NCBI GenBank assembly: GCA_965237675.1
Contig: OZ250150.1
Span: 3,968,001 to 4,032,000 of the forward strand
Source of the DNA: Candidatus Latescibacterota bacterium
GTDB lineage: Bacteria; Latescibacterota; UBA2968; GCA-2709665
Direction of reading: 5' to 3'
DNA: 64,000 nucleotides
In this document: positions 15,365-31,126 of the stretch, piece by piece
How the letters are laid out: every line of letters starts with the position of its first letter
How positions within the stretch are numbered: position 1 is the first letter of the stretch
Position numbers and translations under genes: made by a program
The notes under the pieces: generated by a model
What the model was told of the DNA's origin: nothing
The model's input: the letters and a program-made list of their open reading frames with translations, nothing else
The model's database searches: none

Positions 15365-15994
15365 TCAACCCCCAATCAGTGCCACTGGATTGTCTGCGTC
15401 CACCGGCCGTGCGCCGATTTCAAACAGGTGAGCGTTGTCATCGGAGTCCAACGCGAAAACGGTTTTTCCAGCCCCGGTTGCCTCCCGGCAGAGCGCCTCG
15501 GTCTTCCGTCCTATTTCCGCATGGGCGATCAAGATGATGTCCGAGAGCGCGGCGACACGTGCATTTCGTTCGGCTGCGGTAGCTGCAGTGGGACGGCGGA
15601 CATGATCGTCGAAAAAGGACAGAAACATGAGACGGCCATCATCGAGCAGCGGGTTCCATACCTTCAGAATCCGCATCCTGCCGAGCCCGCGCGCCGGACA
15701 GACGACTACCCGCGCCGAGCCACGCACCAACAGCCACAGGAACTCACACTCCATTGGAGATTGAAACCCGCCCACAAACGTCACGTCAACATCCCGCAGC
15801 GCCCTCGCAAGATCGAACGTCTTCAAAATCACGTCGCCGGGACAACGAACCGAACAGAAGAAACCGATCAGCCGTCCATCAAGTATTCCCGGATCCCCCA
15901 AAAGCGCAACCGGCGCCTCTCTCCCGGTGCCGACGCATCGCCTCAACACCGCCGGCATTTCCGGCGCGTACGTATCAAAACGCTTGATGTTCAA
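15365..15994 (-). CDS. DprA/SMF-like (SLOG superfamily) short protein
   Basis: LLGDPGILDGRLIGFFCSVRCPG...GGFQSPME...VVCPAR...ERNARVAALSD.ILIAHA..G.KT. Confidence 0.8.
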   Translation of the reverse strand: MNIKRFDTYAPEMPAVLRRCVGTGREAPVALLGDPGILDGRLIGFFCSVRCPGDVILKTFDLARALRDVDVTFVGGFQSPMECEFLWLLVRGSARVVVCPARGLGRMRILKVWNPLLDDGRLMFLSFFDDHVRRPTAATAAERNARVAALSDIILIAHAEIGRKTEALCREATGAGKTVFALDSDDNAHLFEIGARPVDADNPVALIGG

Positions 15995-16061
15995 TTGATC
16001 AGATCCGGGCTAATTCTGCGGTTCATCATCAAGTGACAGATCACCGTAAAAAGCCTACATC

Positions 16062-16301
16062 TCACGCGAACTCATAGAGCGGCACTGTCGTTACCGGCTG
16101 GCGGTCTTCCTCCAGCAGGCGTTCAATCCTTCGAACCGTCTCGAGATTCAGCAGCACATCGCCGCAGAAAGAACAAACCTCAGCCGGAACATGGTCGACG
16201 ACGATCACCTGGTCATCACGACGTACGGTGTGCGTAACGTCTTTCGCTTCGTATTGTCCGGGACATCCGTCGATGCTACATTTCATGTCGATTGTCTCCA
16301 T
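16062..16301 (-). CDS. YgiT-type zinc-finger protein (MqsA-like antitoxin)
   Basis: C.I.GC.G...VDHVPAEVCSFCGD motif. Confidence 0.85.
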   Translation of the reverse strand: METIDMKCSIDGCPGQYEAKDVTHTVRRDDQVIVVDHVPAEVCSFCGDVLLNLETVRRIERLLEEDRQPVTTVPLYEFA

Positions 16302-16595
16302 TCATACGTAACGCGCGTCCTTTTCGATACGTTGAACAAACGGAGTGCGGAGACTCTTACTCAGCCGCCGGATATCCACCCTGCACCCGAGGGCTTGCTC
16401 CAGATAGATGTGAAGCCCGGCCAGATCGTCGAACTTTGGTTCCCTGAGTTCTACAACGAGGTCGACGTCGCTGTCTGCCCGCTGTGTTCCCGAAGCGTAT
16501 GACCCGTACAGGCCGATCCGGCGAACGCCAAATCGACGATCCAGTTCAGCTTTATTTTGGGCAAGAAACCTGAGAATGTCCTGTGCTGATCTCAT
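16302..16595 (-). CDS. Minimal nucleotidyltransferase (MNT antitoxin family)
   Basis: FGVRRIGLYGSYASG.QRADSDVDLVVE; ATG at 16595, 97 aa. Confidence 0.88.
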   Translation of the reverse strand: MRSAQDILRFLAQNKAELDRRFGVRRIGLYGSYASGTQRADSDVDLVVELREPKFDDLAGLHIYLEQALGCRVDIRRLSKSLRTPFVQRIEKDARYV

Positions 16596-16729
16596 AATTG
16601 CTTCTTTAATTCGCGCTGGGCAGGGTCTGTTCTGCTGCTCCATGGTCGTGTCGAGCCAGACGGTACATCCGCAAATTCGCACAGAACATCGCGTGCCGAT
16701 TCAAGCCACGCTTTCGCTTGATTTCTCAA
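16592..16729 (-). pseudogene. Truncated HEPN-domain toxin remnant
   Basis: TTG start overlapping the upstream MNT; (M)RNQAKAWLESARD resembles HEPN N-termini (W...A..DL); resemblance is lost after about 15 codons. Confidence 0.55.
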
Positions 16730-17063
16730 ACAGCGTCTTTCCTGAGCTTTCAATCCTACTGAGAAACGAAGCGCCCTGTTTTCGAAGAAGCTCGTACTCG
16801 GACCTGGTGTAGACAACAAGGTCGACGGGAATATGCCTGTTGATCGCTCGGATACTCTTCCTGACTGCAGTTCTTAATGCCATCCTTTCGTCGTAGGTAC
16901 CCGAGACCGCCTCCGAGTCCAGAATGACCAGCAAATCGAAATCGCTCTCCGATTCTCGCTTACCCGCGGCAGCAGATCCAAATAGTACAACCCTGTACGG
17001 ATCAACAGTCAGAAGACACGAGACGATATCGTCAAGGTCGCTGGTGGTCGTCTTCTCCGTCAT
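16701..17063 (-). CDS. Nucleotidyltransferase domain protein (MNT antitoxin family)
   Basis: DPYRVVLFGSAAAG...ESDFDLLVI...PVDLVVYT..E. Confidence 0.88.
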   Translation of the reverse strand: MTEKTTTSDLDDIVSCLLTVDPYRVVLFGSAAAGKRESESDFDLLVILDSEAVSGTYDERMALRTAVRKSIRAINRHIPVDLVVYTRSEYELLRKQGASFLSRIESSGKTLFEKSSESVA

Positions 17064-17123
17064 CTTCCCCTCTCATAATCGACTCCAATTTGCTCCCCGC
17101 TGCGGAAGGTCACGTCTCTCAAT

Positions 17124-17188
17124 CACTCCCCCCTTGAGGGGGAGTCGGCAAGCCGAGGGCGCCAGCCCGAAGGCGCGCCGGTGGGGGG
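17124..17188. repeat. GC-rich palindromic intergenic repeat
   Basis: ACTCCCCC-CTTGA-GGGGGAGT hairpin followed by a second GC-rich stem ending CCGGTGGGGGG. Confidence 0.55.
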
Positions 17189-17244
17189 TTCTTATCGTCC
17201 TCCCCAACCGCAAGAATTCAGCTATGCCACGGCGGGACGCAATA

Positions 17245-17421
17245 CTACTCGGGGACAGACAGCGCATCTTCCTGGAGCGAGATGATATATCCTTGGATCG
17301 CCTCCTTGATATTGGCAATCGCTTCCTGCCTCGTGACCCCCTGGCTGACACAGCCGACCAGGCTGGGGCATTCAGCCACCCAGTAATCGTCTTCTCCGGG
17401 ATAAAGTAATACCTGTCTCAT
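17245..17421 (-). CDS. HicB-family antitoxin (short, no HicA partner)
   Basis: MRQVLLYPGEDDYWVAECPSLVGCVSQGVTRQEAIANIKEAI. Confidence 0.88.
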   Translation of the reverse strand: MRQVLLYPGEDDYWVAECPSLVGCVSQGVTRQEAIANIKEAIQGYIISLQEDALSVPE

Positions 17422-17499
17422 TACGGTCCCTTTCGGCAATAACGTCTGCAATCACAGTCGATTGCTTGCTGGCAGTGAAATGCGACCCACTGCGTTAAT

Positions 17500-17573
17500 T
17501 CATCCCGTTGATTGCCGTGACGCCAACTGTTCGCGGAATGTGCGGACTTCCTCAATGATACATCGTGGTTCAT
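17500..17573 (-). pseudogene. Frameshifted remnant of the small gene that typically follows this PIN family
   Basis: MNHD then a frameshift into IEEVRTFREQLASR, resembling D.I.EEVR..RE small proteins. Confidence 0.45.
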
Positions 17574-17583
17574 CGCCTTATTC

Positions 17584-18062
17584 TTACAGCAACTCTCCCG
17601 GAGTGCAGATGATAGGTGGCTCGTATCCCATTGAACGACACGCTCGCTCAATTTGGTTTCGCATCGTCGCGTTGTCCAGATACTCAAAATTCCAGGTCAG
17701 CAAGTAATCTATCTCACCGCTGATGGCTACCGCGATATGTAGAGCATCGAGTGCCGCCCTACATGGTAGCGGGCCTTCATCAATTAAAATCACGTAAAAT
17801 CACGCCAAATTCAGCCGCCGTTTCGGTCTGCTCGATTGTCTGGCAAATCGGCTATCGGTCCAAGACGCGGTGTAGCCAGCTCAGAATCGCCTGCTACAGC
17901 GTCTGATACAACGAACTCGGAAATATACAATTCGTAGTCGAGCCGTTTTTCGCTCCACCACTGCCGGGTTAACGCCTGGCGAGCAGCGGTGATGATATCA
18001 CGGCTTGGATCAGCAGCGAGATAGCTAATGACTGAGTTTTCGATGTAGAGCTTCGGCTTCAT
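17584..18062 (-). pseudogene. PIN-domain (VapC-like) toxin, frameshifted
   Basis: MKPKLYIENSVISYL...WW and DALHIAVA...DYLLTWN...IICTP in different frames; 10-bp tandem duplication TAAAATCACG at 17785-17804 plus another shift near 17835. Confidence 0.85.
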
Positions 18063-18139
18063 ACGCAATGTCGACGCTTAATGCCAGTACGCGGTCTATT
18101 TCATCAATGATCGGCCTAAGGATGCTCACGTTGCACCGA

Positions 18140-18367
18140 TCAACTTGAGGCCCCCAATAGATAATCTCCAGTAGTGCGCGAAGCGAACCGTATGTCGCCC
18201 CGTTTATCCAGACACGTACTTGCGCCCAGGATTTCAATACCGGCGAGGCGGCCTGCCGCATCGTAGTCCAGCGCGATTCCTTCCTCAATGACGTCCGTCG
18301 TCACCGTTGTTTCCTTTAGGCGGATGTATAGGGCATCCACCTCACGATCGTAAGAAATCTTCATCAT
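18140..18367 (-). CDS. DUF2283 family protein (putative antitoxin)
   Basis: MKISYDREVDALYIRL...GIALDYDAAGRLAGIEIL. Confidence 0.85.
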   Translation of the reverse strand: MMKISYDREVDALYIRLKETTVTTDVIEEGIALDYDAAGRLAGIEILGASTCLDKRGDIRFASRTTGDYLLGASS

Positions 18368-18420
18368 CGCCGCCTCATATTTCGAGCTGGAGTGCCATCT
18401 CGCGTGCTCGCAGAGACCGC

Positions 18421-23371: not shown

Positions 23372-26300
23372 TCAAACTGACGAAATCTTTTCGACGATTT
23401 GAAAATCAATCGAGTATGTCGACGATATCCATTCATCAATTTCGTGCAAACGGCGATCCGCGGACAAGTCAGTAAGGCTTGATGGCATGAATCGTTCCTT
23501 TATCGAAGTAGGTATATTCTTCTCACCGGCATCCCGGTTTATACCGCGCACGAGTGAAACGAATGAGAACAACTCTTTAAGATCAACCCAACTTGCACCA
23601 ATTCCTGAAAGGAACACGAAGTCGGCCCTTCTCGTTAGCGACGATAGTCTTTGGTAGTTGAAATTGCCGATGTATTTGCCGGCGTTCTTCTTGAAGACAA
23701 GTGCAGAATATCTATAATTGTTCAGCACCTCTCCGATGATTGCCAATCGATGCAAATGATCCTTTGGGATCGAAGTGACCGGTGCAACGAGATCCTCAAG
23801 TAACCAATTTGTGACGTGGAATCCATCACCCCTCGTTAGCCAATACCAGAAACCCGCGTCGCCCCCTGTGATCGCGAGAGCCGCGAAGGCCTCCTCTTTC
23901 GAACCCAACGTCACCCAGCCGGATTGCGACGGAACATGAACACTTCGGCCATCGGGGTGCAATACTGGTGGCGGCTCAATATACGTGGAGATGAAATTGC
24001 GCGCGGTTGGCGAGAATCCCAACTTGACAGATTCACCACGTAGACCGTGTCCGGAAGTTAAAACTGAAGTAGAAAACTGATTGTGCATTGCTAATAATTT
24101 CGCTCCAAAACGGTTCGTTAGGCGGGGAATGCCGAAAGTTTCGTTCGGCATCACATCATCGACTTTGTTGTAGGATATATTGTCCAACAGATAATCACGA
24201 TAGGCTGCGCGCCACCTGTATAGACGGGTAGCAAACGAACCGATTTTTCGCGCGGAGGTAGTTAGCCAGATTGTGCATCTCTGGCTAACTCCAGAAAACA
24301 GTGCGGCCGGTATGTTATCGAACGAAGAAAACCAGTGAGTCCCGCTGTTGGCCAAAAGTTCACGTAGACCTGAAAATTCAAAGCTAAATGTCGTTGAAAG
24401 AGGAACAATTAACCCACGGCGTCCGCACCGGCTTGTTATGCGGTGTGATTGTACGACCACGTAACCATAAATATCGGGGAATCTTAAGCTCGTGGTAGAC
24501 CGTACTCTATAACCAACCGACTTGCGGTTTACGTAGGGAGGATTTCCGACAATCACGTCAAATCCGCCCTGTCGCATGATGCCGTAGAATTCGACAAACC
24601 AATGGAATGGCTGGTGACTGATACGCCATTGCTCATAGGAAGCCGTGTCGCTTTCTTGAACGCCGTACTCGCTTGCCAAATATCGGTCCAATTGTTGACG
24701 CAGATCATCTAATCGTCTTCGCAATTCTAACTTCGCATTGACGAAAGCACCGGCGTCCATGTTCAAGCCGATCTGCATCGTGTGGAATATGCGAAAAGCC
24801 CGGTTTGCTAATTCTGTGCGTTCTTCGATATCAGGAAGAGATTGTTCCTTAAACAAATCGCCCCTTACAGCCCGTCTCACATCGCCCAGAGACGTAAAAC
24901 CTACCAATGTGTTTCCCGCGCGGATGTTGAAATCGATGTCGGGCAGTGGCTCAATCTGTTCGTAGCTTTCCAGTTGCGCAACGAGTTTCAAGAAGAGGCG
25001 CAATTTACAGATCTCTACGGCCTCTTCCATGATGTCCACCCCATAGAGATTGTTGATAATGATGGACTTGAGTATGAAGTAGCGTTCGCTGGGATGGGAT
25101 TCGACCTGTTCCAGTATCTTTCGAAAGTCGCTCATTTTCTCGGGGCGGTGTTTACGCTTAGAGCGCTTCAGATCGTCCAGTAGCCCCCGCATAACCTCAA
25201 GGCAGGCAATGTAGCCGGGCTCCAGGATGTTGAGCGCCGCGAACAGGAACGCGCCGGAGCCGCAGGTAGGATCCAGAATCGAGACGGTGGTAAGCCCTTT
25301 CCAGAAAGCACGGATCAATTCGGGGCCCTCGCTCCCGCGGATGACGTCCTCCGCGAATTGCTCAATGTCAAGATTATACGTGATCAGGTCGTTGATGGCT
25401 GTGACCTGACCCGAAGCGAGTTTGGCGTATACCTCCTCGTAGTGGCGGCGGCGTGCGACGTGTTCGCGCCAGGTTTCCGTTGGCAGGGCATAGTCGCTTG
25501 TCGTAGGTTCATTCCAGCCGTCGCGTTTCGAGACGTCGTCCAGTCCTGCTGCTATCTCCTTAGGCAGGTCACGTTCTTGCTTGAGGGTTTCGTTCTTGTG
25601 AATATCGTACGTGATCCCGTGACGGACCGCCTCGTAGAGATACCGGTCCGGCTCGTCCTCTAACAGAGACCACACGCCGCCGCCGGGCCTGAAGGCAATC
25701 GGACAGGCCTTTTTTGCTCGGTCGAACAGGAACGGGATGACGGTGTTGCGGCTGATGTATCCGGTGATATCCTCTTTGGTGTAGTAGGCCCCCATCTGCT
25801 TCTGGTTGATGTATTTCTCGAAGATGTAACCGAGCACGTCGGGGTTGATTTCGTTGTCCTTGCGCAGCGTCCGGTCATCCAGGTGCCACGTATAGGCGTC
25901 GAAGAAGTCAAAGATTCTCTCGAACGCTTCATCGGGGATTTGGATATCCGGATTGTCCTGCTCCAGATCGTGCATGTCAAACAGGCCGCCGTTAAGAAAT
26001 GGCACCTTACCGAGCAACGCTGCCAACTCCGGGGGGCGATTCTCCTCCGGTTGCCCAAGACCGTCATGGAACAACCTCAATAAAAACAGCCGGTAGAAAC
26101 TGTTGAATCGCCCGTTTCCATATTGCTGCCGCACCCTTTGGAGCCGGTCCCGGAGGTATTCGGTGTTGTTGTCGAGGAACCCGCGTTTTTGAATGAAGTA
26201 GATGAACATCATTCGATTCAACATCAGCGAAGCATACCACTCGCGGTCCGCCCGTTCTCCGATTCCCTCAATGAAACCCAGAAAGTCCTGTTGTTCCTTC

Positions 26301-26821
26301 TTAAAGCGGTCGTAAAACCGTTTTGTGACCTTTTCTACGTCGAAGGCCGCGCGAACCCGGCCAGATACGTCGACGATGGTAAGGTCATCTTCATCGTTCA
26401 GTGTAAAGGCGATTTTTTCGAGCTTTTGAATGAGGCGCTCACCGGTATCCCTGCGGCGGTACGATTCCGAACGTTGCCGGTCGGGACGACTGGGTTCACG
26501 TTTCACCCATTGCCAGGATTGTTCCTTCCTGTCGTGCGTAGCATAAACGATGATGTGTTCGCGGACCTCTTTTGCAACGGCTTTTTCGATTTTTCTGCGG
26601 GTGGAATGGTCCGGAAACGTAGTCTCGGAGTCGGCGACGAACTGGTAGGCAACCATGCCTCGTTTGTGCGCGACGGCTTCGAGGGCGAAAGACTGCTCAC
26701 CTGCGTTAATGACTGTATCGGTGCCTCCATGGTCCCAGCCGAGTTCTTCGATGAAGAGGGTGCGGAGGTCGAAATTCTCGAGATGCATCCTGACTTTGTT
26801 TCTATTCAGTTTCGTCGGCAT
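23372..26821 (-). CDS. Eco57I-like N6-adenine DNA methyltransferase with C-terminal target-recognition region
   Basis: PFLNGGLF, LGYIFEKYIN..GAYYT, motif I DPTCGSGAFL, YGVDI..EAVEI, motif IV VGNPPY. Confidence 0.92.
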   Translation of the reverse strand: MPTKLNRNKVRMHLENFDLRTLFIEELGWDHGGTDTVINAGEQSFALEAVAHKRGMVAYQFVADSETTFPDHSTRRKIEKAVAKEVREHIIVYATHDRKEQSWQWVKREPSRPDRQRSESYRRRDTGERLIQKLEKIAFTLNDEDDLTIVDVSGRVRAAFDVEKVTKRFYDRFKKEQQDFLGFIEGIGERADREWYASLMLNRMMFIYFIQKRGFLDNNTEYLRDRLQRVRQQYGNGRFNSFYRLFLLRLFHDGLGQPEENRPPELAALLGKVPFLNGGLFDMHDLEQDNPDIQIPDEAFERIFDFFDAYTWHLDDRTLRKDNEINPDVLGYIFEKYINQKQMGAYYTKEDITGYISRNTVIPFLFDRAKKACPIAFRPGGGVWSLLEDEPDRYLYEAVRHGITYDIHKNETLKQERDLPKEIAAGLDDVSKRDGWNEPTTSDYALPTETWREHVARRRHYEEVYAKLASGQVTAINDLITYNLDIEQFAEDVIRGSEGPELIRAFWKGLTTVSILDPTCGSGAFLFAALNILEPGYIACLEVMRGLLDDLKRSKRKHRPEKMSDFRKILEQVESHPSERYFILKSIIINNLYGVDIMEEAVEICKLRLFLKLVAQLESYEQIEPLPDIDFNIRAGNTLVGFTSLGDVRRAVRGDLFKEQSLPDIEERTELANRAFRIFHTMQIGLNMDAGAFVNAKLELRRRLDDLRQQLDRYLASEYGVQESDTASYEQWRISHQPFHWFVEFYGIMRQGGFDVIVGNPPYVNRKSVGYRVRSTTSLRFPDIYGYVVVQSHRITSRCGRRGLIVPLSTTFSFEFSGLRELLANSGTHWFSSFDNIPAALFSGVSQRCTIWLTTSARKIGSFATRLYRWRAAYRDYLLDNISYNKVDDVMPNETFGIPRLTNRFGAKLLAMHNQFSTSVLTSGHGLRGESVKLGFSPTARNFISTYIEPPPVLHPDGRSVHVPSQSGWVTLGSKEEAFAALAITGGDAGFWYWLTRGDGFHVTNWLLEDLVAPVTSIPKDHLHRLAIIGEVLNNYRYSALVFKKNAGKYIGNFNYQRLSSLTRRADFVFLSGIGASWVDLKELFSFVSLVRGINRDAGEKNIPTSIKERFMPSSLTDLSADRRLHEIDEWISSTYSIDFQIVEKISSV

Positions 26822-26916
26822 TAGGATCGTCCGGATTGTTGTGTTGGTATTGGATTTAATCGGGCGAGGAGTAACCGCACGAGAACTGACGTGTCAATCC
26901 CGAAGCGAAGGGTCAT
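26821..26916 (-). pseudogene. Truncated PIN/VapC toxin (first ~17 codons only)
   Basis: Manual translation MTLRFGIDTSVLVRLLLAR...stop; overlaps the AbrB gene end; its TAA overlaps the methyltransferase ATG. Confidence 0.7.
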
Positions 26917-27136
26917 ACGATTGCTCCCGGAAGTCCTGGAGATCAAACGTCCCATGTCCGCGCCGGATCTTATCGCGCAACGTCCCGAGACGGGAATGAT
27001 CGATGCGTCTGGGCCTCAGGGCGAACCCGTCGGGCCCTTCTACGATTTCGAGTTGGTCTCCCGGGCCGACCCCCAGAGCGTCCAGCACCCGCTGAGGAAG
27101 GGTGACCTGGCGTTTTGAAGTGATTTTGACAATCAA
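26894..27136 (-). CDS. AbrB/MazE/SpoVT-family antitoxin
   Basis: VKITSKRQVTLPQRVLDALGVGPGDQLEI; probable TTG start at 27136. Confidence 0.88.
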   Translation of the reverse strand: MIVKITSKRQVTLPQRVLDALGVGPGDQLEIVEGPDGFALRPRRIDHSRLGTLRDKIRRGHGTFDLQDFREQSYDPSLRD

Positions 27137-27156
27137 GGGAAATCGGCTGAGAGTCA

Positions 27157-27224
27157 TTGGACTACGAAATACGCGAAATGGGGTGAGTGGCGTTGGACTA
27201 CGAAAAATACGAAAAAAGGGGAAA
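27157..27224 (+). repeat. Two tandem arms of ~9-bp units (TTGG-ACTACGAAA-...), downstream flank of the GxxExxY gene
   Basis: TTGGACTACGAAA at 27157 and 27193, each followed by further ..CGAAA/GAAA units; inverted relative to 27623-27650. Confidence 0.75.
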
Positions 27225-27232
27225 GATGTGGC

Positions 27233-27619
27233 TTATAATTCGTTTACGAAACGTTCGTATTCCAGTCCTGGATGATGGCCGAAATTGACGAGCAGGCCGA
27301 GTTTCACACCTGTTGATTTCACGTAGTTGATGACTTGTGCGCGATGTTCATCTTTCAATTGTTTCACTGCCTTGATTTCCACAATAATTCTGTCGAAACA
27401 GAAAAAATCAGGCTGGTAAAACTGCTTCAACGCCTGTCCTTTGTAATGAAGTTTCAAATCTATCTTCTCCTTGTACGGGATCGCCGAAGAAGTGAATTCC
27501 ATTGCAAGACACTCCTGGTAAACTGCTTCAAGAAAGCCGGCTCCTTTTTCTTTGTACACTTCAAAGCAGGCACCGATAATCCGATAGCTTTCCTCTTTGT
27601 AGACGATTTTTCCAGTCAT
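27233..27619 (-). CDS. GxxExxY protein (PD-(D/E)XK-like nuclease fold)
   Basis: 128 aa; IIGACFEVY...GFLEAVYQECL...PDF...IIVEIKA...AQVINY...GLLVNFG. Confidence 0.93.
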   Translation of the reverse strand: MTGKIVYKEESYRIIGACFEVYKEKGAGFLEAVYQECLAMEFTSSAIPYKEKIDLKLHYKGQALKQFYQPDFFCFDRIIVEIKAVKQLKDEHRAQVINYVKSTGVKLGLLVNFGHHPGLEYERFVNEL

Positions 27620-27830
27620 ACATTTCGCGCCCTTTCGCGACTTTCGTAGTTAATCAAGCCCATAGAGCAGATGATTCGGGGCTCCCGCGGTTCATCCTCC
27701 ACCTCGAGAACGCGAGCCCCTCTTTACCGACGATTTTTCCAGTCATACATTTCGCGTCTTTTCGCGACTTTCGTAGTTAATCAAGCCCATAGAGCAGATG
27801 ATTCGCGGTTCATCAGGTTCATCCTCACCG
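27602..27830. repeat. Imperfect ~100-bp direct duplication (127-bp period) of the helicase 3' end plus GxxExxY start
   Basis: GACGATTTTTCCAGTCATACATTTCGCG...TTTCGTAGTTAATCAAGCCCATAGAGCAGATGATTCG at 27602 and 27729. Confidence 0.9.
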
Positions 27831-30800
27831 TGGATGATGCAAAGCCGCCCATCCTCCCGCATTTCGATGACCAGTCCGGCGAGATCATCGTCAGAGATTC
27901 CGCTGCGCAATTGGCGGTTCAGCGTATCCACCGCGGATTGGCGCAGCGGATATCGGTATATCTCGCCCACTGTCCTGCGAAGTTGTTCTGTATCGAAGAG
28001 TGTGCCCTCGACCCTCTCGGCGTGATTCTTAAGCCGTTCATAGGTGCGGAAGCGCGCACCCGAGGGTCGTCCCAGTTGGCCGCCGACCTGTTTCTCCTCC
28101 TTAGCTATGCGTTCAGCGGCTTTTCGTACAAGATCGTGATGGGTTTCGTGCCGGGGAAGCGCCGGTGTATTCGGTTTGCATTCGGCGGCCCGGAGAATCT
28201 CGAATTGGCTTTCGGTGACGCTGCCCCCTTCGCGATCCATCCACGCGAGGGCATCGTTGCCCTGTGATGTACGCATGTATACAAGAACACCGTCCTCCCG
28301 GTCCTGTGTATGTACGCCGGATTTGGAGGAATGGACGACGTGAGGCATCTCCTCCACCTTTTTCTTCAGCGGCGGATCGGCAGTCGTGGCGTTTCTCCAG
28401 ATCTGGTAGGCATACGACGCAAGATCCACCTCGGAATCGTCATCGCCATCGAGGACTCCGGTCTGTTCGTTATATAGATCGACCACCGCAAGAGTGTCCT
28501 CGTCCTCAAAAAAGGCTTCGTCGGTTCCCACCACTTCGGCGTTCTGTTCGAGGCGTTGCCGTACCCGGGCTCGCAGCCGAATCAGACGTTCGATGCCCTC
28601 CGCGGGTAGGAAGGAATAGCAGAGGATGTTCGGCGCCGATTGACCGATGCGGTCCACGCGTCCGGCTCTTTGGATCAGCCGGATAATCGCCCACGGCAGG
28701 TCGTAATTTACGACAATGGCGCAGTCCTGAAGGTTCTGTCCCTCGCTCAACACATCCGTGGCAACCAGCACCCGGAGTTCCTCCTCCGGCGCGATCTGCC
28801 CGCCTTTCTCGTTGCTCTTGGGACTGAACCGCCAGGCCAACCGCGTGGGATCCGTGGAGTCGCCAGTAACGCCGGACAGCCGTTCGACGCCTCCACCCTT
28901 TAGCTGACGTTCCAGGTATTGCACGGTGTCGGCGAACTGAGTAAAGACCAGAACCTTCTCGCGTGGATGTCTATCCCCAAGGATCTTTTGCAAAGCGGCA
29001 AGCTTGGCGTCGAGTGACGGAATCCATTCACCGAATTCCTCCAACATTTCTCGTAACGTTCTCGCATCCGTCACCAGGGCTTCCCGAAGAGTCTCGTCGA
29101 AATGACGCGGGCTCAGCCAGCGAAATCGCCTTCTGTATCGTTCGCGGTAGGCATCGTAGACTTGTGTGGCGTGCCGCCGGAAGTCTTCTTCGGTTCTCAG
29201 AACGTGCTGTGTCTGAACTTCGCCGTCTCCGTCCTCTTCTTCTTCGAAAATGTCGCCGGCAGCGCCGTCCGGATCCGCGTCGAAAGATTGAGGGTCCAGA
29301 AGCCCTGCGTCGGTTGTCCCGATCGGTAAATCCAGACCGTTTTCGATGGCATGGATAAAGATGAAATTTCTCAGCACATGTCGCTCAACCGAGAGCTGGA
29401 ACGAATGACCGCTGCTTTCAAGGCGTTTGAACAGGTTGGTACGGCAGAACCCCATGAGGCGCCTGCCGGCGCGCGACAGGTCTTGCAGGATCCGGTCCTC
29501 AGTCGACGATGGCGGCGGATCGGCCGCGGAGGTCAAGTAGTTTGCCAGACCGTAACGCGGGAGCTCCAACCCATTGATCGCGGATACAACGTTTTCGTCA
29601 AAGAGCCGAGCATATTGTTTGTCGATATTGAAACCGACGGTTCTGGGAACGCGGACGGGAAAATAGGATCGGGTACCGTCCTCAAATGTCAGATACTTGC
29701 GGCCCTTGGCCGGATCCATCTCGGCATAGTTTTCCTGGATGAAGCTGCGCGTGCGTCGTACAAGGTAGAGTCGCATCAATTCACGCCAGTCGTCGGTATA
29801 TTCCGAATGGTCGAATGCCGCAAGCGACCGGACAGATGCCTGGTGGCGACGAATGAACTCGGTTTCGCCGATCTCTCGCAACAGGCGTTCGGGACGAATG
29901 CCCAGGTCTTCATTGTCAGAAACAAACAATCGGATCTGGTTTGAGAGATCCTGGTACGTCTTGTTATATGGCGTAGCCGAAAGCAGGATGCACTTGCTTT
30001 CATTCTCCGCGATGTATTCCTGGATTGCCCGGTATCGCTTGCCCTCACGGTTCCTTAGATTATGACTCTCGTCAATCACCACGAGGCGATACCGGCGCAT
30101 GTCGGGAAGTTCCCGGGTCGCGCGGCTGATCGAAAGAACCCGGGCGCGCATCCGATACTCTTCGCGATAATCCTCCCACATCGGCACCAGGTTCTTTGGG
30201 CAGATAATCAGCGTTTCAACCCCATAATCGTCTTCAAACACCCGCGCCAAAGCCGTGGCCATCAGCGTTTTACCGAGCCCCACCACATCGCCGATAATGA
30301 CGCCGCCGCGTTTGTTCAGGTGATGTGCGGCGATCTTCACGGCGGCCACCTGGAAGTCGAGAAGCTTATTCCCGAAATCTCTCGGTATACGGAATTCCGT
30401 CAGACCCGCTCGGGCTTCCTGCGACAGGTGATAAGCCATCTTCACGTAAATATGGTACGGTGGGATCAACCGCGGCCCCGCCCAACTCTCATCGATGATT
30501 TGTGCCAGTTCCTCGGATATATCGACGCACCAACGGTCGGACCACCGATCTTCAAACCATTTTTCGAGCTTAGTGCAGGCATCGTGATCCATCACGTCGA
30601 CGTTCAACTCTCCCTGCCCGGAAAGGCCGGATTGGGTAAGATTGCTACTGCCCAGGTACCCCACTTTAGGGTTGATGGGATCCGAGCGGAACAGCATGTA
30701 GAGCTTTGCATGAAGCGGATGCCTGAGGAAGAGCTTTACGACTACCTTTTTCGTCTTGATCTGCATTGACAACCTGCGGAGGCCGGCCTCGTCCGCGTTG

Positions 30801-31126
30801 CTGGGCGCCCCCGTGGCCAATTGGTCTCTGAATTCCTCGGCCAGACGTTTCTTCAGCCGAATGGCGGTCTGATTATCGAGTTTCCCATCCTGCGCAGTGA
30901 GACTCCTGGCGACTCGAAACTCCTCGTGCGGCAAGCGATGCATGCCCACCAGCAGGCGGCAGCAATGTCCCTCCCCACCCTTCCATCTCTCGACATATTC
31001 GTCGATCTTCCGCCATCCACGCAGGTTGAAATAACCCACGCAGAAATCCGCGCGATAAGACACCTCCATAGTCTCCTGGAGCGCAGGAAGAAGTGGCTGC
31101 TCGATATTGTCGAAAATACGTGGCAT
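27743..31126 (-). CDS. PLD-nuclease/SNF2-family helicase fusion
   Basis: HAKLY....D and GSSNLT (PLD), GDVVGLGKT, DESH, SATP, SEGQNLQ, QRAGRVDRIG. Confidence 0.93.
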   Translation of the reverse strand: MPRIFDNIEQPLLPALQETMEVSYRADFCVGYFNLRGWRKIDEYVERWKGGEGHCCRLLVGMHRLPHEEFRVARSLTAQDGKLDNQTAIRLKKRLAEEFRDQLATGAPSNADEAGLRRLSMQIKTKKVVVKLFLRHPLHAKLYMLFRSDPINPKVGYLGSSNLTQSGLSGQGELNVDVMDHDACTKLEKWFEDRWSDRWCVDISEELAQIIDESWAGPRLIPPYHIYVKMAYHLSQEARAGLTEFRIPRDFGNKLLDFQVAAVKIAAHHLNKRGGVIIGDVVGLGKTLMATALARVFEDDYGVETLIICPKNLVPMWEDYREEYRMRARVLSISRATRELPDMRRYRLVVIDESHNLRNREGKRYRAIQEYIAENESKCILLSATPYNKTYQDLSNQIRLFVSDNEDLGIRPERLLREIGETEFIRRHQASVRSLAAFDHSEYTDDWRELMRLYLVRRTRSFIQENYAEMDPAKGRKYLTFEDGTRSYFPVRVPRTVGFNIDKQYARLFDENVVSAINGLELPRYGLANYLTSAADPPPSSTEDRILQDLSRAGRRLMGFCRTNLFKRLESSGHSFQLSVERHVLRNFIFIHAIENGLDLPIGTTDAGLLDPQSFDADPDGAAGDIFEEEEDGDGEVQTQHVLRTEEDFRRHATQVYDAYRERYRRRFRWLSPRHFDETLREALVTDARTLREMLEEFGEWIPSLDAKLAALQKILGDRHPREKVLVFTQFADTVQYLERQLKGGGVERLSGVTGDSTDPTRLAWRFSPKSNEKGGQIAPEEELRVLVATDVLSEGQNLQDCAIVVNYDLPWAIIRLIQRAGRVDRIGQSAPNILCYSFLPAEGIERLIRLRARVRQRLEQNAEVVGTDEAFFEDEDTLAVVDLYNEQTGVLDGDDDSEVDLASYAYQIWRNATTADPPLKKKVEEMPHVVHSSKSGVHTQDREDGVLVYMRTSQGNDALAWMDREGGSVTESQFEILRAAECKPNTPALPRHETHHDLVRKAAERIAKEEKQVGGQLGRPSGARFRTYERLKNHAERVEGTLFDTEQLRRTVGEIYRYPLRQSAVDTLNRQLRSGISDDDLAGLVIEMREDGRLCIIHGEDEPDEPRIICSMGLINYESREKTRNV

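Follow-up and report, generated by a model that had tools for sequence, protein, structure and literature searches.

Does a GxxExxY nuclease gene that lies between inverted arrays of short repeats at the end of a helicase gene form a mobile element of its own, and what would move it? The question is raised by a locus in the window, the whole 64,000-nt stretch of a Candidatus Latescibacterota genome analysed here, where the original prediction had proposed a minimal selfish cassette whose nuclease binds the periodic arms and which inserts at gene ends. We report that the unit of gene plus arms is real, is widespread among bacterial phyla, and occupies gene junctions that are empty in relatives. 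Below we describe the locus and its protein, the filled and empty alleles in relatives, the footprints of relocation and the arms of the family at large, and weigh the possible explanations.

Layout of the locus and its host genes

The cassette spans 27161-27650 (490 bp) and consists of one gene between inverted arm arrays (Table 1). All four arrays of the original prediction were recovered at their positions, two on the minus strand and two in the opposite orientation, but the uniform triplets of 9-mers ascribed to them were not: the units measure 9-10 nt, and the outer right arm has two good units only. The inner left arm ends 3 nt from the ATG (27619) and the stop (27233) is 8 nt from the inner right arm. 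Searched with a relaxed arm pattern, the 5.6-Mb genome gives 5 matches, of which 4 belong to this locus; none is found for the reversed pattern. The last residues of the helicase, NYESREKTRNV, are arm-encoded as supposed, but by the outer left arm and not by the one adjacent to the ORF. The helicase stop (27745-27743) overlaps a false nuclease ATG within a tandem unit described below.

Table 1. Features of the cassette and its flanking genes in the window
Feature	Positions	Strand	Description	Profile matches
GxxExxY gene	27233..27619	minus	128 aa; PD-(D/E)XK fold; E31, D71, E81-x-K83, Q95xxxY99	PF13366 2e-40, TIGR04256 2e-40
Inner left arm	27623..27650	minus	three units of 9, 9 and 10 nt	
Inner right arm	27197..27224	plus	inverted; unit 3 degenerate	
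Outer right arm and decayed right-pad copy	27161..27196	plus	two good units (27161-27178); 36-nt tandem duplication of arm and pad	
Right pad	27136..27160	minus	gives the antitoxin ORF a longer, chimeric start	
127-nt tandem unit over left junction	27633..27759	minus	helicase-tail copy (27651-27700), false nuclease start (27701-27746), arm	
Outer left arm	27750..27777	minus	in-frame source of the helicase's last codons	
PLD-nuclease/SNF2 helicase, left flank	27743..31126	minus	host gene, restriction-modification-like operon	
AbrB/MazE-type antitoxin, right flank	26894..27157	minus	host/passenger gene	
Type IIG-like DNA methyltransferase	23372..26821	minus	host gene, downstream of antitoxin	

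The site had been described as a helicase-methyltransferase junction, which is incorrect: the downstream neighbour is the antitoxin gene, and the methyltransferase follows only after that. Element-free alleles have an intergenic stretch of ~65 nt 5' of the antitoxin gene, the place of which is taken here by the cassette; in G007, G004 and G026 the cassette directly abuts the methyltransferase start. PADLOC gave no match, an Rfam scan of 26000-29000 returned one chance match and none on the element, and no promoter-like site was found on the strand of the nuclease gene.

Several features of the surroundings were noted. At 26821-26930, hardly anything remains of the PIN toxin gene that G012 and G015 have after the antitoxin, so that the antitoxin is left an orphan. 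The C-terminal part of the methyltransferase encoded in the operon (31126-23372, minus strand) varies widely (58-93% identity between relatives). In G026 the methyltransferase gene is present twice in tandem, each copy with an arm pair before it. The region at 15400-18420 (minus strand) holds small toxin-antitoxin-like, nucleotidyltransferase and DprA-like genes, several of them broken, by labels read from their translations; its counterpart in relatives is a second cassette site, and there is no cassette at this place in the window.

The GxxExxY protein

With an HMM score of 138 bits, against cut-offs of 22 (Pfam) and 35 (NCBIfam), the protein is a member of the GxxExxY / PDDEXK_3 family, and it carries the motif G28-x-x-E31-x-x-Y34. 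D71, E81 and K83 are kept in at least 90% of 47 rows, and Q95 and Y99 are also conserved. The predicted structure (pLDDT 94.8) has a PD-(D/E)XK fold, with Cas4 SSO0001 (E 2e-4), LHK-Exo and lambda exonuclease as top Foldseek matches, and a wide fold search gave generic PD-(D/E)XK matches (best Z 7.8); TnsA was not among the matches listed in either search, which excludes nothing. A PDB sequence search with the 47-row profile found no relative. Neither a DDE transposase domain nor a HUH/Y1 domain (PF01797) was found in Pfam and NCBIfam searches, PF13366 being the sole Pfam match. Values of dN/dS of 0.08-0.14 in six pairs indicate purifying selection; the predicted active site is intact-looking and is under such selection.

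The family comprises 13,087 clusters at 50% identity (E <= 0.001). Longer relatives occur (P0047, P0032, P0070, P0095, P0104 and P0146), one of 635 aa in which the family domain is C-terminal, and they also include proteins of 250-293 aa with two matched stretches.

Filled and empty alleles of the helicase junction

We compared 19 orthologous helicase loci, namely that of the window and 18 from 40 relatives. An arm stands directly at the helicase end in 8 loci and none does in the other 11, so that the proposed discrete cassette is present at the former, and the latter provide the empty-site alleles whose search in relatives had been suggested. The C-terminal extension goes with the element: all 8 filled helicases end in arm-encoded residues (one in NYE only), and none of the 11 empty ones has such a tail, their endings being, for example, LIGQ or LIRRQT. 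The 8 filled loci include three internally deleted units, one frameshifted gene, and one deleted unit followed by a full unit.

The filled alleles do not form one clade (AU p 3e-36; 4 changes) on a helicase DNA tree of 18 rows, from which the helicase of G034, being too short, was left out; the window and G008 group there with the empty allele of G012 as their sister. Both flanks of the window are closest to this empty G012 allele right up to the junction, and the cassette and right pad are common to the window and more distant filled alleles; therefore, the block has been exchanged between lineages. No co-conversion tract is visible beside the junction, the exchange tracts being very short or absent, and either direction of exchange fits. 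The divergence of gene and helicase is broadly congruent within the genus. Rather than being a fresh insertion, the copy seen here has long resided in the genus and has been reshuffled by recombination within the defence operon.

Tandem duplications at both junctions

The second left arm, listed as a second copy in the original prediction, is present, but it is one part of a tandem duplication of 127 nt whose copy number differs between strains. The duplicated unit consists of the helicase tail, the arm and the first nuclease codons, and its copies are identical at 106 of 127 positions, 46 nt of them forming a perfect stretch. There are two copies in the window, one in contig X6 and five in G008, which accordingly has five left arms in tandem. 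Contigs from two samples of two studies (X1 and X5) carry both copies, and the contig of a third sample (X6) carries one and otherwise shows no differences over 1030 nt; hence, the duplication is not an assembly artefact. On the other side, the first 14 nt of the right pad match the junction between arm and methyltransferase start of G007 at 13 of 14 positions.

Relocated copies and insertion footprints

Cassettes occupy further junctions of the same island, after the antitoxin gene in G004 and inside the following gene in G006, and copies lie ~10 kb downstream in G008, G004 and G005. In 10 of 13 secondary arms the left flank continues into sequence of the helicase tail, which amounts to 29 nt in the relocated copies of G008 (far site) and G010, 40 nt in G006 and 46 nt in G005; secondary arms with little tail were three at 0 (by an ungapped method) and one at 10 nt. 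The methyltransferase and following genes are missing in G006 between the operon and the far-site genes. Joins made through homology at one end and illegitimately at the other are a known concept, and the flank pattern fits them, not a precise cut-and-paste.

No target duplication was found next to the arms in 32 of 39 gene-bearing units, as in the control. Next to the arms or 8-30 nt outside them there was no clear excess: duplications were seen as 5-mers in 14 of 41 cases (32% by chance), as 6-mers in 6 (9.5% by chance) and as 7-mers in 3 (2.6% by chance), a comparison of weak power, and the insertions may be old enough to have lost target duplications. At the G154 site, a seeming duplication of 5 bp was discarded, its left copy being a conserved coding sequence in empty alleles. 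Two further sites were informative. At the first, 9 of 15 relatives have a clean stop/start overlap; it is filled in one more, and bears two deleted copies and one arm remnant; the other, a Verrucomicrobiota junction, is filled in two genomes by members that are 61% identical and have different words. No target duplication was found at either of them.

Other rearranged copies were observed within the genus. The deleted cassette at the far site of G004 (L177:15207-16615) is interrupted by a 362-aa transposase-like ORF, IS630-like as read from its sequence. Dispersed solo left arms in G003, G004, G006 and G007 (L102-L105, L109, L113-L121) are joined to another repeat family of the genus, and they retain ~11 nt of the helicase tail and ~20 nt of the nuclease gene start.

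Arms across the GxxExxY family

The enrichment of inverted arms around GxxExxY genes, which the original prediction had put forward as a check, was confirmed in two sets of loci. In the first, comprising 83 distinct loci left from 115 after incomplete, near-end and duplicate ones were dropped, inverted flank similarity exceeded the threshold at 63 loci, compared with 0 of 256 shifted and 2 of 1660 shuffled controls. The second began with 178 loci, of which 144 were usable and 105 remained after clustering at 80%; inverted arms were present at 74 of these, direct repeats at 15 and neither at 16, and 1 of 302 shifted controls had inverted arms.

In 39 clean cases the arms usually consist of three YRCRRA words with a spacing of 9-10 nt (spacings of 9, 10, 8 and 7 nt occurred 82, 43, 12 and 1 times, respectively). 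Left and right flanks share the word class at 52 of 72 loci (shuffle mean 16.9, maximum 28). Word classes cluster on the protein tree, requiring 18 changes against 25.9, with 0 of 200 shuffles as low; one class accounts for most of this clustering, and three others show none. The terminal word of the window is shared by an eight-row clade that spans several phyla (support 100/98). The protein has Thr at residue 11 in 17 of 20 loci when core base 5 is G, and in 0 of 30 when it is A (gaps excluded). Corrected for kinship, this link is not significant, with 5 independent pairs, 3.1 of which go the same way and 0 the opposite way (p 0.25). By word class, no residue/word covariation was significant.

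The converse search, from arms to gene, covered 20 stretches among the matches listed in a sample of 301 Verrucomicrobiota genomes. Inverted arm pairs 437-494 bp apart hold a full gene in 6 of 6 cases, no full gene was present in one pair of 372 bp and 11 pairs of 54-172 bp, and 2 of the 20 stretches had arms in one orientation only. The arm pattern occurs in 9 of 9 genomes with the cognate gene, and is absent from 22 and present in 10 of 32 genomes without it, related genomes not being independent in these counts.

The neighbouring gene is on the same strand upstream in 48 of 71 cases and downstream in 52 of 71 by a crude longest-frame rule; we do not use these counts as evidence because they have no control. 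At five loci (L011, L123, L125, L357 and L358) the nuclease ORF reads through the right arm, with an apparent stop at the TAG of the terminal word. Immediately outside the left arm, these loci have a purine-rich stretch resembling a ribosome site.

Proposed mechanism

With some preference, we regard the cassette, roughly 440-490 bp long, as a selfish element, whose protein probably binds its own arms and cuts at or near them, and which host recombination would copy to new junctions. Binding would be by a multimer to the YRCRRA words, of which each arm has three at intervals of 9-10 bp (about one helical turn), and the bound protein would nick or cut nearby. In the repair that follows, one end would be joined through homology and the other by a short illegitimate join. 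Such one-sided repair would account for the helicase tail (29-46 nt) that moved copies carry and for the methyltransferase-start pad before the antitoxin gene, as well as for the tandem duplications at both junctions, the internal deletions and the loss of the block between two copies in G006. The cassette could persist at stop/start junctions because, lacking a promoter of its own, it would be transcribed with the operon, and because its A-rich arm would be readable without a stop.

A broader proposal is more tentative, and we put it forward as possible rather than probable: GxxExxY proteins might be the mobilising enzymes of a new class of minimal elements, in which a 128-aa protein of the Cas4/lambda-exonuclease fold would read heptamers arrayed in phase, with A or G at one base selected by residue 11, cut beside the array, and insert at translationally coupled junctions with no duplication of the target; host gene ends would be rewritten and defence islands rearranged in this way.

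A very large family without an assigned function hereby gains a candidate substrate that can be tested directly. Should the protein prove to move the unit, the cassette would be among the smallest autonomous mobile elements, with a fold not known to transpose alone and a word code that varies within the family. The footprints at the locus themselves comprise two-sided flank capture, strain-level change of copy number, deletion between copies, and rewritten ends of a restriction-like operon.

Alternative explanations

A domesticated gene could also carry such arms. They would be its operator-like sites, the gene serving autoregulation, defence or repair, inherited mostly vertically and shuffled passively through host recombination and natural gene flow, with the protein not the driver. 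We consider this unlikely, since an operator is needless downstream in inverted orientation, the neighbours of family loci, as read from their flanks, are unrelated (ABC transporters, SUF and tRNA ligase operons), one junction has been filled twice by different members, PADLOC found no match, and internally deleted copies persist and relocate. The domesticated gene nonetheless accounts for the purifying selection, the broad congruence of gene and helicase within the genus, the location in a defence island, and the single copy per word family per genome. It also agrees with the rarity of GxxExxY genes on plasmids (8 of 72,556 records) and on viral contigs (2 loci). Ordinary repeat recombination can make tandem and deletion variants, and the patchiness of the helicase junction could equally reflect empty alleles recombining back in.

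A host DDE or HUH transposase could instead move arm-bounded DNA, with the nuclease gene as cargo. Arms that lie inside MITEs speak for this. The window's genome has three GxxExxY paralogues, each with its own word family, and no near-identical second copy of the cassette gene; the words of two paralogues have 44 and 49 pattern matches there, and the arm pattern of the window has 34-58 matches in G001, G004 and G006, compared with 5 in the window's genome. Paralogue L002 (G000:C1:1582400-1589800 and elsewhere) lies amid tandem arrays of 9-10-nt ATCACAGT units in direct orientation, its word being the one with 49 matches genome-wide, and paralogue L003 (G000:C1:3051600-3055300) lies within a dense array of ~185-nt units of GCCACAAAA arms. 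Dispersed GCCACAAAA doublets of this genome were first taken as REPIN-like, and many of them lie in MITEs. This MITE family (213-366 bp; G000:C1 positions 38981, 94852, 386429, 431936, 724371, 893146, 1961555, 2047562, 4666942 and others) has C-C/G-G ends and one or two arms of the third paralogue; paralogue arms are present in 11 of 12 copies, 4-bp TTAA/TTAG duplications in 8 of 12, and the MITE is absent at two orthologous sites checked in G008 and G012.

A second MITE, in G269 (L397-L426), is 212 bp long, has at least 30 copies and encloses an arm pair of the window's word. Its 5-bp duplications, of an NTNAN-type target, are exact in 22 of 30 copies (control 35 of 870), and its last 9 bases equal the right end of ISEcp1 as printed in PMC7864471. 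We rejected these duplications as a signature of the nuclease, as the MITE has ISEcp1-type ends that the gene-bearing unit of G269 lacks. Gene-less doublets of 54-172 bp exist, and the multi-copy ones examined lie inside MITEs with other ends. Arms thus occur in MITEs of at least two genomes, and dispersed arms therefore need not have been moved by a GxxExxY protein; taken alone, they are a trap and no proof of mobilisation by it. The window's genome also has three weak Y1-transposase matches, elsewhere than the cassette, and many other repeat families. As an account of the cassette itself, however, transport as cargo is improbable: in the G269 MITE, 18 and 22 nt separate the arms from the ends, which the gene-bearing unit does not have, gene-bearing units have no duplication, cargo of this size is always of the same family (6/6), word and protein covary (through the clustering on the protein tree and the residue 11 link, the latter with the kinship-corrected p value given above), and no IS1380 transposase with matching ends was found in G269, a draft genome.

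That the arms act in RNA, as a stem that loops out the ORF, in the manner of 23S rRNA intervening sequences, and so keeps the operon working or permits excision from the transcript, is very improbable: the arms do pair in the predicted fold, and units lie within 30 nt of an upstream stop (26/39) and a downstream start (23/39), but the fold z-score is -0.57, spacer bases between words are free to differ between arms, some members have swapped or direct-orientation arms, there is no Rfam match, and no preference for G-U-compatible mismatches is seen between arms (40 vs 52), a result closer to DNA sites than to an mRNA stem. A search of RNA-run contigs of relatives found no joint skipping the element, a result informative on neither expression nor processing.

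Comparison with known systems

ORF-bearing 23S rRNA intervening sequences have a small ORF in the loop between inverted arms; the cassette differs from them in sitting between protein genes, having no Rfam match and showing no sign of selection for RNA pairing. To our knowledge, no periodic inverted arms occur with Tn7 TnsA, YhgA-like/Rpn proteins or I-Bth0305I, and TnsA requires TnsB and TnsC, partners that are not among the neighbours here, which are the helicase, antitoxin and methyltransferase genes. The likeness of these proteins to ours is that mobile DNA uses the same fold: Tn7 TnsA, the YhgA-like/Rpn putative transposases and I-Bth0305I are PD-(D/E)XK proteins of mobile elements named in PMC3424549. 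The same source lists PDDEXK_3 / GxxExxY with function 'Unknown' and 'multiple transfers, mixed clades'; our protein is a plain member of that family, and the arms and the cassette behaviour are absent from the cited passages of PMC3424549. GxxExxY also appears as the name of a domain beside a reverse transcriptase (10.1101/2021.01.26.428298), and the name occurs in PMC12085832. The literature searched, with supplements and most subscription papers outside its scope, gave no description of arms around the family, and the cassette is apparently undescribed in the searchable literature. Held against homing endonuclease elements, the cassette has filled and empty alleles that interleave on the tree, no visible conversion tract, and targets that are unrelated across phyla.

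The closest parallels are two. Insertion sequences with terminal inverted repeats and their MITEs (IS1380 family / ISEcp1) likewise have one gene between inverted ends, internally deleted derivatives and variable flank capture (PMC9330008, PMC7864471), whereas the cassette encodes a 128-aa protein of nuclease fold with no DDE match, has periodic ends, and shows neither target duplications nor near-identical dispersed copies. REPIN-RAYT systems resemble it in having an enzyme gene of low copy number, mostly on the chromosome, with a family of short repeats of its own on either side, more than one such gene/repeat pair per genome (three here), flank-including tandem clusters and gene-less doublets (PMC3116915, PMC5581495). 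They differ in that the enzyme is HUH/Y1, compared with PD-(D/E)XK here, and the repeats are REP palindromes, compared with non-palindromic heptamer arrays; moreover, the gene here lies between both arms and moves with them, and some dispersed copies ride unrelated MITEs. The analogy with RAYT/REP drawn in the original prediction is weaker than it seemed, as the dispersed arms without a gene in two genomes are parts of MITEs that have ends and target duplications of their own. Though it departs from both systems in its enzyme, and from DDE elements in leaving no duplication, the cassette works most like a REPIN-RAYT pair or a tiny IS.
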